A stretch of DNA of 64,000 nt from an uncultured Pseudomonadota bacterium (GCA_902793695.1 CADBEI010000007.1:804-64803); one strand, 5' to 3'. Positions 9,070 to 12,191 are shown, counted from the stretch's first letter. The notes: generated from the sequence alone by a model not told the origin. Numbers and translations are program-made.

Positions 9070-10539
9070 ATGTTTTTATCTAAATCTGACTATATAATGG
9101 GCTTGGATTGTGTTAAGGCTCTCTGGCTCAAAAAGAATCGTAAAGACCTTACTCCCGAATATGATGACCGCACGCTCCAAAACTTTGAAACTGGCGAGAA
9201 AGTTCAAGAATTAGCCTACGATTATTATCCCAAAGGTATAATGGTTGATGCTGAAAATTGGGATGTGTTTGGCGGTGCTGCCAAAACTAAAATCTTAACC
9301 CAAGACCACGATGTTATCTACGAAGCAACGGCTAAATTGGATAACGGTTGCTTTTGTCGCATTGATGTACTGATGAGAAATGGTGATACTTGGGATTTGA
9401 TTGAAATTAAATCAGCAACCGAAGTTAAGGACTATTATATAGATGACCTTTCGTTCCAAAAATATGTGTTTGAAAATGCTGGGTATCCAGTAAGAAATTG
9501 TAAAGTGCTACATCTCAATAACCAATATGTTCGGCACAGTGATTTGGATATTCAGCAACTTTTCACAGAAGAAGATGTCAGCGAACAAGTTAATGAGCGT
9601 CAGAAAGATGTGGAGATGTATGTTAAAGGTATGCTCTCATATCAAACCCGACCAGAAGAACCAGAGGTTCCGCTCCATTCTTCTTGCTCGGATTGTCCGT
9701 TCTACGGCTACTGTGGCAAAGATGTTCCAGAATACTCGGTGTTTGACTTGTTATCATCTAAAAATGCTGACCTGTTCTACAACCAGACACATTCTTTCAA
9801 TGTGGAAGATGTATCAGAAGATTGGTGCTCTACCGAGAAGCAACTGATAGACCGTGATGCTTATTTGAATAAATCGCTCCACATAGAGCAGGAGCGGATT
9901 CAAGATTGGCTCAACACGCTGGAATATCCGTTGTATTATCTTGATTATGAGACCGTTCAATGTGCGATTCCGATGTTTGACAATGCGAAACCTTACGCAC
10001 AAATACCGTTCCAGTTTTCGCTACATATTCAGAATTCACCTAATGCCGAGCCGAAGCATTTAGAGTTTCTACACCAAGAGCGTTCAGACCCTCGCCGTGC
10101 ATTAGCCGAGTTTTTGATTAAGAGTTGCGGCAAAAAGGGGTCAATCGTCGTGTATAACCAAGCGTTTGAGATGACTCGGAACAAGGAATTAGCCGAGTTA
10201 TTTCCTGATTTGGCAGTAGATTTGCTGGCTATAAATGAGCGTGTCATAGACCAGTTGATACCATTTAGAAGTCGTGCTCTTTACAGTTATAAGCAAAAAT
10301 CTTCGGCATCAATTAAGTATGTTTTGCCAGCATTCAGCGACCTTTCATATAAAGGTATGAATATTGCCAACGGTGGTGAAGCAATGAGTAAATATTTAGC
10401 ATTTCTTGAAGGTAAGCAAACCGAAGATGAGAGCAAGCAGATGTTTGCTGATTTGCTTAAATACTGCGGTCAGGACACCTATGCAATGGTGCTTTTAATG
10501 GATGTTTTATATCAATTTGCGAAGGGAAAAAAGAAATGA
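9070..10539 (+). CDS. DUF2779-type protein: N-terminal Cas4/RecB-like PD-(D/E)xK nuclease with Cys cluster + C-terminal DEDD-like exonuclease
   Basis: The N-terminus LSKSDYIMGLDCVKALWL is typical of DUF2779. RIDVLM...WDLIEIKS gives the D..ExK motif. The cysteines are GLDC plus CSDCPFYGYC. YLDYET (DxE) and YCGQDTYAM (Yx3D) are the exonuclease motifs. Confidence 0.7.
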   Translation: MFLSKSDYIMGLDCVKALWLKKNRKDLTPEYDDRTLQNFETGEKVQELAYDYYPKGIMVDAENWDVFGGAAKTKILTQDHDVIYEATAKLDNGCFCRIDVLMRNGDTWDLIEIKSATEVKDYYIDDLSFQKYVFENAGYPVRNCKVLHLNNQYVRHSDLDIQQLFTEEDVSEQVNERQKDVEMYVKGMLSYQTRPEEPEVPLHSSCSDCPFYGYCGKDVPEYSVFDLLSSKNADLFYNQTHSFNVEDVSEDWCSTEKQLIDRDAYLNKSLHIEQERIQDWLNTLEYPLYYLDYETVQCAIPMFDNAKPYAQIPFQFSLHIQNSPNAEPKHLEFLHQERSDPRRALAEFLIKSCGKKGSIVVYNQAFEMTRNKELAELFPDLAVDLLAINERVIDQLIPFRSRALYSYKQKSSASIKYVLPAFSDLSYKGMNIANGGEAMSKYLAFLEGKQTEDESKQMFADLLKYCGQDTYAMVLLMDVLYQFAKGKKK

Positions 10540-11345
10540 TGGAAGCAATTTATGGAGCAATTTGTGGTGATATTGTCGGCTCGGTTTATGAGTGGGACAA
10601 TATAAAGACCAAAGATTTTGATTTTTTTGATGAGTTTTCGTTTTTTACCGACGACACCGTGATGACTTTGGCAGTTGGTTGGGCGTTGGTTTATTGTCGT
10701 GGAAATTACGATAATTTGAGTGATGAAGCAATTGGGGCTATGAGGTTGTTTGGCTTGCGTTATCCGCATTCTGGATATGGTGAAAACTTTCGGGAGTGGC
10801 TTATTTCCGACAATCCAGAGCCGTATAACTCTTTCGGAAATGGAGCAGCGATGAGAGTTAGTCCTGTGGCTTACTTTGCCAAATCTTTGGAAGAAGTGAA
10901 GGAATTATCATATAAAGTTACGGCTGTTTCACACAATCACCCCGAAGGAATCAAAGGAGCCGAAGCAACGGCTGTGGCTGTGTATCTGTCTTTACAGGGA
11001 AAGAGCAAAGAAGAAATTAAAGAGTATATAACCAAAAATTATTATACTTTGGATTTTACACTTGATGAAATCCGTCCGACTTATGGTTTTAAGGTATCGT
11101 GCCAAGATTCGGTGCCACAAGCATTAGAAGCCTTTTTTGAATCTACTGATTTTGAGGACGCTATTCGTAATGCTATCTCTATCGGTGGCGATTCTGATAC
11201 GATTGCGGCGATTTGTGGCTCGGTTGCTGGTGCTTTCTATGGCGTTCCTGATAATATCAAAAAGTTTGCTCTTGATAAACTTGACGATACTCTGCGTGAA
11301 AAATTGGCGGAAATTGAGAAAGCATATGCCGAGAAAGCCGCTTAA
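10536..11345 (+). CDS. ADP-ribosylglycohydrolase family protein (ARH/DraG-like)
   Basis: Motifs are GAICGDIVGSVYEW, FTDDTVMTLAV, GNGAAMRVSP and GGDSDTIAAICGSVAGAFYG. The start overlaps the upstream stop (ATGA). Confidence 0.85.
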   Translation: MMEAIYGAICGDIVGSVYEWDNIKTKDFDFFDEFSFFTDDTVMTLAVGWALVYCRGNYDNLSDEAIGAMRLFGLRYPHSGYGENFREWLISDNPEPYNSFGNGAAMRVSPVAYFAKSLEEVKELSYKVTAVSHNHPEGIKGAEATAVAVYLSLQGKSKEEIKEYITKNYYTLDFTLDEIRPTYGFKVSCQDSVPQALEAFFESTDFEDAIRNAISIGGDSDTIAAICGSVAGAFYGVPDNIKKFALDKLDDTLREKLAEIEKAYAEKAA

Positions 11346-12000
11346 ATATTACTGGAACAATGATGAACTGATTGACCTTTTGGCTCGTGTTTCGTTTGCC
11401 GAAGGAAGTTTGCTAACGGATATGCTCCATCTTCCCGAACACAGGTATAATCAAACACGAGCCGAAGTTTCAACCAAAGAGTTTGCTGGATTAGATATTG
11501 ATAAAGCACGCCGAGCCTGTGAATATGGGGTTGTTCCTGACAACGCAATCACAACAGATTCTCTGAAATATTGGAACGATGGCGAGGTTAAAACAGATAA
11601 AATCAAGCAAGTGAAAGAACTTTTGGACTTTATCAACGACGAACAAGTAGCCCATCCACTCATCAGAACGGCTGTGGCTTATGTATGGTTTTTGAAACTC
11701 CAACCATTTGCTGAAAATAACGACACGACAGCACGATATTTAATGCTGGCGATGCTTGCCAAACACGAGCACATTTCCGAGCGTTTTTATGCTATTTCAG
11801 AGGTGTTTTCGGAAGATGAGTCAATTTATCATCTTATGTTAAATAATGCTCTCACGGGCAATAAAAACCTCACTAAATGGATAAAATACTTTCTTGAATC
11901 AATGCTTCAAGCAATCCAGAAATCATTGGTGGGATATATTCAAGAGAGTATTCAGATAGCACGGAAGAAGGTTCATAATAAAGCGGAGATAGAACAATGA
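11326..12000 (+). CDS. Fic-fold protein with degenerate active-site motif
   Basis: AHPLIRTAVAYVWFLKLQPFAENNDTTARYLMLAML aligns with the Fic core HPFxxGNGRxxR but reads QPFAENNDTTAR. I chose ATG 11326; the longer track ORF from 11137 overlaps the ARH gene out of frame. Confidence 0.55.
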   Translation: MPRKPLKYYWNNDELIDLLARVSFAEGSLLTDMLHLPEHRYNQTRAEVSTKEFAGLDIDKARRACEYGVVPDNAITTDSLKYWNDGEVKTDKIKQVKELLDFINDEQVAHPLIRTAVAYVWFLKLQPFAENNDTTARYLMLAMLAKHEHISERFYAISEVFSEDESIYHLMLNNALTGNKNLTKWIKYFLESMLQAIQKSLVGYIQESIQIARKKVHNKAEIEQ

Positions 12001-12191
12001 CTGATAAAGACGAAAATAAGGCAACGGAAAATAATATCAAAGAAGAAAACAGTATGATTATTGATGAGTCAAAAAATACCTTTATGCCGAAAGATGAAAA
12101 GGAATTAAGGTATTTAGAACAGTTGGCGGACAGAGCAATCGCAGAATATAAAGCAGGTAAATGTAAGCCGTTTAAAGATTTTAAGTGGTAA
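11997..12191 (+). CDS. Small acidic/Lys-rich hypothetical protein (64 aa)
   Basis: The ATGA start/stop overlap with the upstream gene suggests translational coupling. A weak hairpin follows the gene. Confidence 0.45.
   Translation: MTDKDENKATENNIKEENSMIIDESKNTFMPKDEKELRYLEQLADRAIAEYKAGKCKPFKDFKW

Follow-up and report, generated by a model that had tools for sequence, protein, structure and literature searches.

The window analysed here is a 64,000-nucleotide (nt) stretch of DNA from an uncultured Pseudomonadota bacterium (GCA_902793695.1 CADBEI010000007.1:804-64803), in which four closely packed genes encode a DUF2779 nuclease, an ADP-ribosylglycohydrolase (ARH), a Fic-like protein that has lost its catalytic histidine (hereafter pseudo-Fic) and a charged protein of 64 amino acids (aa). 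An initial annotation had proposed these genes as a candidate for one co-expressed, undescribed system of the defence or toxin-antitoxin (TA) type, placed beside a Type III restriction-modification (R-M) pair. But is this tidy arrangement a system at all? Comparison with related elements shows three independent layers of acquisition: a backbone made of pseudo-PBP, ARH and pseudo-Fic genes, with or without the 64-aa gene; an insertion of DUF2779; and an R-M cassette borne by a resolvase. We hold with good confidence that the region is a mosaic rather than one four-gene system, and it is most likely the accessory operon of a tRNA-Pro-integrated element (carrying an integrase, an HUH Rep-like gene and DUF6626) of an uncultured gut or rumen alphaproteobacterium. 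The novelty lies in an isolated family of pseudo-Fic proteins that is invariably coupled to ARH, and not in a four-gene system of a new category. A false lead is removed in this way, the four-gene "system" being really a mosaic, and neither close packing nor codon overlap could, in this one element family, tell genes that are functionally coupled from genes that insertion had brought side by side.

Layout of the Operon

The operon runs from a conserved stretch between genes, at about 8129-8266, to a hairpin. Its features are the following:

8267-9055, plus strand: secreted pseudo-PBP or class-D-beta-lactamase-like protein, 262 aa (Pfam Transpeptidase, 3.9e-5; OXA-like N-terminal half, 2.4e-4)
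9070-10539, plus strand: gene 1, DUF2779 protein, 489 aa, variable cargo between the pseudo-PBP and ARH genes; a Cas4-like PD-(D/E)xK nuclease with four cysteines, fused to a DEDDy 3'-5' exonuclease
10536-11345, plus strand: gene 2, ARH3-like ADP-ribosylglycohydrolase, 269 aa (Pfam, 6.8e-41; PDB ARH3, 2.4e-16, with motifs aligned)
11326-12000, plus strand: gene 3, pseudo-Fic, 224 aa, a minimised Fic fold of the SoFic/CbFic2 type, coupled to ARH by a conserved 20-nt overlap
11997-12191, plus strand: gene 4, charged 64-aa orphan, often present, dispensable (C-terminal 45 aa conserved in the alignment)
12201-12226, no strand: hairpin between the convergent operon end and DUF6626 gene, with A/T runs on either side (-16.7 kcal/mol, z = -3.7), likely a bidirectional terminator

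The pseudo-PBP gene, absent from the initial annotation, is a fifth member of the operon, and its stop codon lies 14 nt before gene 1. The other four are co-oriented as had been described, and both the list of open reading frames (ORFs) and the raw sequence bear out their overlapping junctions. Genes 1 and 2 share an ATGA at 10536-10539, as do genes 3 and 4 at 11997-12000, and gene 3 begins at the ATG at 11326, inside an ORF spanning 11137-12000, which with the TAA stop codon of gene 2 at 11343-11345 makes an overlap of 20 nt. Profile searches agree with the domain calls made earlier for all four genes, gene 4 belonging to no family. Overlaps of 1-4 nt between start and stop codons are frequent between co-directional bacterial genes. 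Because short overlaps are so common in bacterial operons, those seen here reflect operon packing and are by themselves weak evidence for a dedicated complex; among them, only the 20-nt overlap of ARH and pseudo-Fic is kept in all relatives. The backbone order is pseudo-PBP, ARH and pseudo-Fic, usually with the 64-aa gene last. All five genes are under purifying selection, the ratios of nonsynonymous to synonymous substitution rates (dN/dS) being 0.05 for DUF2779, 0.08 for ARH, 0.13 for pseudo-PBP, 0.17 for the 64-aa gene and 0.28 for pseudo-Fic (dS is about 0.6-1.0 in the comparison of the last four).

Presence and Absence of the Genes in Related Elements

The proteins of the window were mapped onto about 10 distinct related elements (L001-L015, L024), the host lineage being uncultured gut and rumen Alphaproteobacteria. 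ARH and pseudo-Fic are adjacent in 10 of the 10 loci that have sequence on both sides, their 20-nt overlap stands in identical register in every locus, and a pseudo-PBP gene lies upstream of the pair in every related element. DUF2779 and the 64-aa gene are variably present, and the component genes do not co-occur as a unit across the relatives. Only the lineage of the window, L024, L015 and L012 carry DUF2779 between pseudo-PBP and ARH. L007 has a broken copy, and L003, L011, L004-6, L009 and L013 have none; about half of the related elements lack the gene. Four loci (L007, L008, L009 and L014) are without the 64-aa gene, whose place in L007 is taken by an AAA_14/DUF4143 ATPase. At the DUF2779 junctions a GGAGAA microhomology occurs on both sides, and in the relatives that bear DUF2779 the ribosome-binding site of ARH (GGAGAAAAATAATG) is formed anew by the last codons of this gene, as would suit a gene gained or lost cleanly, by microhomology, just upstream of that site.

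The idea of one undescribed system, defensive or TA-like, that works beside the Type III R-M genes and has four components in fixed stoichiometry (the DUF2779 protein, ARH, pseudo-Fic and the 64-aa protein) is scarcely tenable any longer, and the pattern of presence and absence largely refutes it. The genes are indeed tightly packed and overlapping, on an island where they adjoin R-M genes; at least three variants of divergent sequence carry all four together (the window and L015; L024 and L012 are partial), and relatives of DUF2779 elsewhere are often found beside restriction genes. However, DUF2779 is missing in five variants and broken in one with ARH and pseudo-Fic intact, the 64-aa gene is dispensed with in four loci, and the R-M genes are an exchangeable cassette. 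Relatives outside the element family never share neighbours, those of DUF2779 and of ARH having wholly different ones. Finally, when the ORFs of the island were scanned with Pfam and PADLOC down to about 125 aa, smaller ones not being included, no ADP-ribosyltransferase (ART) or other candidate toxin was found.

The Pseudo-Fic Family

Gene 3 matches the Pfam Fic family marginally (1.6e-5, 26.0 bits for a cut-off of 24), the SoFic model of PADLOC at 1e-16 through its core only (model positions 165-279 of 361), and, among PDB profiles, 8CIL at 5.6e-11 and SoFic at 2e-5. Its motif reads QPFAENNDTTAR, against the canonical HxFx(D/E)GNGRxxR: the loss of the catalytic histidine noticed by the initial annotation is real, and the GNGR anion hole is lost as well. 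All 20 aligned members of the family (20/20) carry (Q/K)PFA(E/K)NN(D/N)xTAR at this position. Compared with its Fic relatives, pseudo-Fic has also lost the S-x-x-x-E-G motif of the inhibitory helix (alpha-inh), a segment of about 26 aa, a flap of about 40 aa and the entire C-terminal winged helix-turn-helix (wHTH) domain. The flap is the target-docking beta-hairpin, for which about 40 aligned columns are deleted in the family. What remains includes the helices of the core and, at the N-terminus, a helix resembling DUF4172.

An AlphaFold2 (AF2) model made with 20 close homologues only had a predicted confidence (pLDDT) of 40 and was discarded; with 60 distant Fic relatives added, pLDDT reached 93. 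The best Foldseek match of this second model is Coxiella Fic2 (8CIL) with a template-modelling (TM) score of 0.77, followed by FICD and SoFic (TM 0.77-0.6). The Fic fold proposed for gene 3 is upheld both by the 8CIL profile and by this structural match, and the sequence evidence for Fic identity is independent of the AF2 model. The closest relatives in sequence and in fold are the SoFic and Coxiella CbFic2-type proteins, made of DUF4172, a Fic core and a wHTH domain, from which pseudo-Fic differs by the absence of the catalytic histidine, GNGR, alpha-inh, the flap of about 40 aa and the whole wHTH.

Because these five elements are gone, pseudo-Fic cannot work as an AMP-transferase and is no SoFic defence gene. 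Its score against the SoFic equivalog NF046030 is 34.8 bits, for a cut-off of 550, and it lacks the full-length SoFic architecture. Nor does the locus have the makings of a class I Fic TA or Phd-Doc pair, since the small gene lies downstream and matches no antitoxin family, and the Fic motif is dead. Neither the label of Fic AMP-transferase nor that of SoFic defence gene or Doc/FicT toxin suits pseudo-Fic. Judged by its sequence, the family is a lineage-restricted Fic scaffold under purifying selection, from which every element of AMPylation has been lost. Of 148 distant Fic relatives 92 are canonical, and variants without the histidine that keep GNG are common; as far as motifs tell, the pseudo-Fic family is more degenerate than these.

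The family is also an isolated one. Its homologues form only 52 clusters, with identities of 59% or more; they come from gut metagenomes, bovine ones among them, and from metagenome-assembled genomes labelled "Alphaproteobacteria bacterium". One locus occurs among 185,579 GTDB species representatives, none in the viral contigs of IMG/VR, and seven in a metagenome scan. There is one full-length cluster among 1.84 billion representatives at 50% identity, and the next matches after it are ordinary Fic proteins of about 370 aa, the score falling from 448 to 83 bits.

ARH and Its Relatives

The ARH of the window matches PF03747 over residues 4-237 (141.3 bits, cut-off 26.2). Its motifs for metal binding and catalysis (GDIVGSVYE, FTDDT, GGDSDT) line up with those of ARH3 and belong to the 63 columns that are invariant across 29 homologues, and the nearest solved structures are ARH3 enzymes. 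The subfamily counts at least 8000 clusters, with members 59-67% identical in Clostridia, Synergistaceae and Acutalibacteraceae; it occurs in phages of Porphyromonas and Bacteroides, on plasmids, and in at least 533 viral-contig stretches of IMG/VR. In the best 80 of these 533 or more, which include about 21 closely related phage contigs, no Fic-like, pseudo-Fic, pseudo-PBP, DUF2779 or 64-aa ORF lies within 5 kb of the viral ARH (0/80). When the flanks of the same 80 loci were clustered, no universal partner emerged, the large clusters coming from the 21 or so related contigs. Gene 2 is an ordinary member of this large subfamily, and its motifs predict an enzyme in working order. The group as a whole is very large, has spread horizontally, is rich in phage and plasmid members and occurs elsewhere without a Fic partner.

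Solo copies of ARH, 69-73% identical, are found in alphaproteobacterial chromosomes (L028-L030), and they are as close as the ARHs of other pseudo-Fic elements. Since such close relatives are maintained without pseudo-Fic, ARH appears not to need it. In 4 of 5 independent metagenomic contexts, ankyrin-repeat proteins are encoded no more than 5 kb from an ARH relative (L016:1-2380; L017:1646-2599; L028:5920-6945; L030:1209-2660). In L028/29 the ankyrin protein is directly upstream of ARH, and that of L030 has a faint OspC-family match; as an orthologous ARH partner they are not established, their similarity being at the level of the repeats only (about 29%). In Porphyromonas phage005b (L021:4776-5102) and Bacteroides phage Versailles (L023:4767-5090), ARH is followed by an overlapping ORF of about 108 aa with an N-terminal CRFY-x-G. 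These two ORFs are weakly similar to one another (E 3e-4) and may represent a different ARH partner; as analogues of pseudo-Fic they were rejected, being unrelated to it (hhalign probability 0.1%).

An ordinary physiological role, in which ARH would reverse endogenous regulatory ADP-ribosylation or clear O-acetyl-ADP-ribose, and in which pseudo-Fic, the 64-aa protein and pseudo-PBP would be hitch-hiking or decaying remnants that share no function, is very unlikely. The solo copies found among housekeeping genes would suit it, as would the weak constraint on pseudo-Fic and its occasional truncation. However, these genes are under purifying selection (dN/dS 0.08-0.28 over a dS of about 0.6-1.0), the 20-nt coupling is conserved, and ARH is strongly enriched on phages and plasmids.

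How does this ARH compare with known erasers of ADP-ribosylation? Phages carry the orphan erasers AdfN, of NADAR fold (PMC11257639), and AdfM, a macrodomain (bioRxiv 10.1101/2025.11.20.689424), both of which counter DarTG. Like them, the ARH of the window is a predicted stand-alone remover of ADP-ribose on a mobile element, with no cognate transferase nearby; unlike them, it has another fold (ARH/PF03747, ARH3-like) and is coupled to pseudo-Fic. With DarG3, the ARH-fold antidote of DarHTG (PMC13069673), with Tri1 of Tre1/Tri1 and with DraG of DraT/DraG, it has in common the enzyme superfamily and intact metal-binding motifs. However, the scanned island ORFs contain no writer resembling DarT, Tre1 or DraT, and Pfam and PADLOC scans of the island proteins matched no DarT or other ART beside ARH, as a DarTG or DarHTG locus would have. 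The suggestion that ARH is the antidote of a neighbouring ADP-ribosylating toxin found no support in these scans. Its scores also lie far below the equivalog cut-offs of Tri1 (NF041672, 51 bits for 490) and DraG (TIGR02662, 74 bits for 337), and the likeness to DarG3 is drawn at the level of the superfamily.

The Other Backbone Genes

The 64-aa protein matches no family in PHROGs, Pfam (E up to 1), NCBIfam or PADLOC. An inhibitory motif of the VbhA type was considered in its N-terminal TDKDEN, which resembles (S/T)xxxE(G/N), and was rejected, as it is not conserved in the homologues. The pseudo-PBP has a signal peptide (a hydrophobic N-terminus) and, in the motif alignment, no conserved SxxK motif; a PDB sequence search with it gave no match. 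In L015:6242-7741 it is tandemly duplicated and fused into a protein of 499 aa.

Fic/Doc folds are known in the TA pairs Phd/Doc and VbhT/VbhA. Could ARH, pseudo-Fic and the 64-aa protein form a TA-like addiction module that stabilises the element, one of the two uncharacterised proteins being toxic and ARH or the other one the antidote? The genes are translationally coupled on a mobile element, and the ARH fold, like the Fic/Doc fold, has a place in TA or immunity pairs (for ARH, DarG3, PMC13069673). This is nevertheless very unlikely: pseudo-Fic is without histidine, GNGR and flap, the TDKDEN of the 64-aa protein is not conserved and its gene lies downstream rather than upstream, four loci with an intact pseudo-Fic have lost the 64-aa gene, other loci retain ARH beside a truncated pseudo-Fic, and solo ARHs exist elsewhere.

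It is also quite unlikely that the operon is an orphan immunity cluster directed against interbacterial toxins, similar to the acquired clusters of interbacterial defence, in which a periplasmic pseudo-PBP would neutralise an effector aimed at the cell wall, ARH would undo the work of ADP-ribosylating effectors as Tri1 does and pseudo-Fic would be the decoy of a Fic effector. Such a cluster would agree with the way in which single genes are gained and lost as modules on an integrative element, in the crowded community of the gut, with two catalytically dead, binding-type proteins beside one eraser enzyme, with the spread of ARH across phyla at about 60-67% identity and with the lack of a cognate toxin in cis among the scanned ORFs. 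Against it, ARH reaches 51 of the 490 bits required for Tri1 and is closest to ARH3, nothing in the region points to a type VI secretion system or to effectors, and the great frequency of ARH in phages is a better fit to phage-host conflict than to contact-dependent antagonism.

A Proposed Eraser and Its Proposed Non-catalytic Partner

The overall reading that we consider probable on balance blends the mosaic described above with a mechanism put forward more tentatively, that of an eraser accompanied by a non-catalytic partner. ARH would be the sole working enzyme of the conserved pair and would act alone in erasing ADP-ribose marks, to the benefit of the element or its host, in the way of the phage orphan-antitoxin erasers (AdfN, AdfM) or of antidotes of the ARH type (DarG3, Tri1). 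Pseudo-Fic would be made in fixed proportion with ARH by way of the conserved 20-nt overlap and would serve as its non-catalytic partner, be it adaptor, regulator or decoy. As for the DUF2779 protein, its action on DNA would depend on neither.

The ARH/pseudo-Fic pair, with or without the 64-aa gene, is possibly a conflict-related module. A bolder version, which we find rather unlikely, makes of the pair (with or without the 64-aa protein) an undescribed mobile-element module in which a Fic pseudoenzyme binds an ARH3-like eraser and directs or gates it; if true, such a module might strip the ADP-ribose marks of host ART-based immunity, or decoy SoFic-type defence proteins. PADLOC gave no system-level match for this combination of genes, and no published system with it was found in the literature, as the initial annotation had anticipated. 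Members of the ARH subfamily abound in the phages, plasmids and integrative elements of the gut, and the subfamily would extend orphan-eraser counter-defence, so far that of AdfN and AdfM, to a third ADP-ribose-hydrolase fold.

Several points weigh against this overall reading. All loci bearing pseudo-Fic descend from one element family, so that the constant adjacency of ARH and pseudo-Fic could be mere inheritance rather than functional coupling. Pseudo-Fic is under the weakest constraint of the five genes (dN/dS 0.28), and a few relatives (L015; P0050-P0052) have it in frameshifted or truncated form. The alignment behind its AF2 model is dominated by canonical Fic proteins, and the model leans to that fold. 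The counter-defence or immunity role of ARH would be inferred from analogy, and some close ARH relatives that sit among housekeeping genes in L028/29 make a role outside conflict possible. Lastly, the sample of DUF2779 and ARH neighbourhoods is small, amounting to a handful of loci plus the 80 viral contigs.

The DUF2779 Nuclease

Gene 1 is an ordinary member of the DUF2779 family (PF11074, 1.4e-42, 145 bits for a cut-off of 23), with a weak PADLOC match to Cas4 (4e-8) and another weak one to RNase_H_2. All the motifs quoted for it earlier (IDVLM...DLIEIKS, C..CSDCPFYGYC, YLDYET, YCGQDTYAM) are found in the translation, where they read IDVLM/DLIEIKS, C14...CSDCPFYGYC, DYE and Y-x3-D. A PDB sequence search gave no match. 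This two-nuclease architecture, Cas4 followed by DEDD, has already been described (PMC3985635; PMC13621843). Solo Cas4-DEDD nucleases of the MMSYN1_0389 type have the same architecture and catalytic residues; the protein of the window keeps all four Fe-S cysteines, whereas MMSYN1_0389 keeps two. No CRISPR context was seen: Pfam and PADLOC found no cas gene among the neighbouring ORFs, and there is no array-like repeat family in 1-16000.

DUF2779 homologues number in the thousands. Among a handful of loci with relatives 38-71% identical, none has ARH or Fic beside DUF2779. In L025 (4964-9608; 71% identical) the gene lies between a WYL regulator, a 361-aa protein and a DnaB_C/AAA_25 ATPase; in L026/27 (L026:56-7461; 61%) it comes after McrB-McrC, beside WYL, AAA_25 and HsdM; and on the Aliarcobacter butzleri plasmid NZ_CP104379.1 (L031:3247-7340; 38%) the order is DnaB_C, PD-(D/E)XK nuclease, DUF2779 and WYL. 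The DUF2779 gene of the window is, in contrast, an isolated cargo without the WYL, DnaB_C-like ATPase and PD-(D/E)XK partners of its relatives. The combination of DUF2779, WYL, a DnaB_C/AAA_25 ATPase and a PD-(D/E)XK nuclease of about 360 aa recurs outside the window and is not in PADLOC. These genes may belong together as a conserved unit, conceivably one of defence, and as a candidate system this unit looks more promising than the four genes proposed earlier.

The Element and Its Restriction-Modification Cassette

The features around the operon are the following:

3651-3670, no strand: left 20-nt direct repeat TGTCAGATTTTGACATAGTT, with an internal palindrome, 95% identical to 8129-8148 at a spacing of 4478 nt
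3670-4287, minus strand: serine recombinase (resolvase/invertase) of the cargo cassette (Pfam Resolvase, 2.9e-29; PHROG DNA invertase, 1.7e-43)
4355-6052, plus strand: Type III Mod methyltransferase, variable cargo (Pfam N6_N4_Mtase, 5e-29; PADLOC MTase_III, 4e-68)
6052-8124, plus strand: Type III Res subunit, variable cargo (Pfam ResIII, 2e-12; PADLOC REase_III, 3e-22)
8129-8148, no strand: right 20-nt direct repeat, border of the cassette and partner of the copy at 3651-3670
12244-12624, minus strand: DUF6626 protein of the element backbone (Pfam, 3.7e-9), adjoining the operon in related elements too
12569-13273, minus strand: HUH-type Rep-like protein, putative replication gene of the element (THLHMLH motif; weak Pfam REP_ORF2-G2P match, 3.8e-4, below the cut-off)
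13648-14910, minus strand: tyrosine integrase of the element (PHROG integrase, 6e-20; Pfam Phage_integrase, 9e-5)
15432-15508, minus strand: tRNA-Pro(CGG), integration target and right end of the island (tRNA scan)

The repeats, of consensus TGTCAGATT(T/C)TGACATAGTT, bracket the resolvase, Mod and Res block exactly. Mod stop and Res start are fused at 6052, and the adjacent pair answers to the definition of a Type III R-M system. Such systems are present in four element variants only, with identities between them of 33-59% for Mod and 26-73% for Res, values at which they are taken to be different cassettes; at the same site other related elements have, together with a resolvase, other R-M pairs or small ORFs, and some have no R-M. 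This suggests cargo cassettes mobilised by serine recombinases at the 20-nt repeats, and the Type III R-M pair and its resolvase are one such swappable cassette. The Mod/Res pair that had been reported upstream as a defence context is there, but the cluster adjoins it because a resolvase cassette was inserted at a 20-nt repeat.

The integrase-bearing island described earlier is likewise present, with its integrase beside tRNA-Pro, and across the related elements integration sites are at tRNA-Pro, tRNA-Trp and tRNA-Gly. L003 (11051-11122 and 18709-19149) has the same tRNA-Pro/ymdB flank as the window and a second copy of a tRNA-end segment of about 72 nt, which points to tandem islands. In this locus the ARH/pseudo-Fic element has lost its Rep and integrase, and what separates it from the tRNA is a second island, with genes of Mrr-like, HAD, radical SAM, resolvase and integrase types. 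A search for a copy of the tRNA-Pro end of at least 14 nt, as a left attachment site, found nothing relevant; on its left the island reaches at least to the first position of the window.

Four conserved backbone ORFs occupy 547-3549 on the minus strand: o156, with four predicted transmembrane segments, o190, o361 and o219. They match no family in Pfam (E up to 1), PHROGs or NCBIfam, and a homologue of o219 lies, in divergent orientation, beside the solo ARH of L030. Elsewhere in the window there are a tRNA-Glu at 18642-18716 and, at 60128-60442, a tmRNA gene with the tag ANDNFAPVAVAA, asterisked by ARAGORN.

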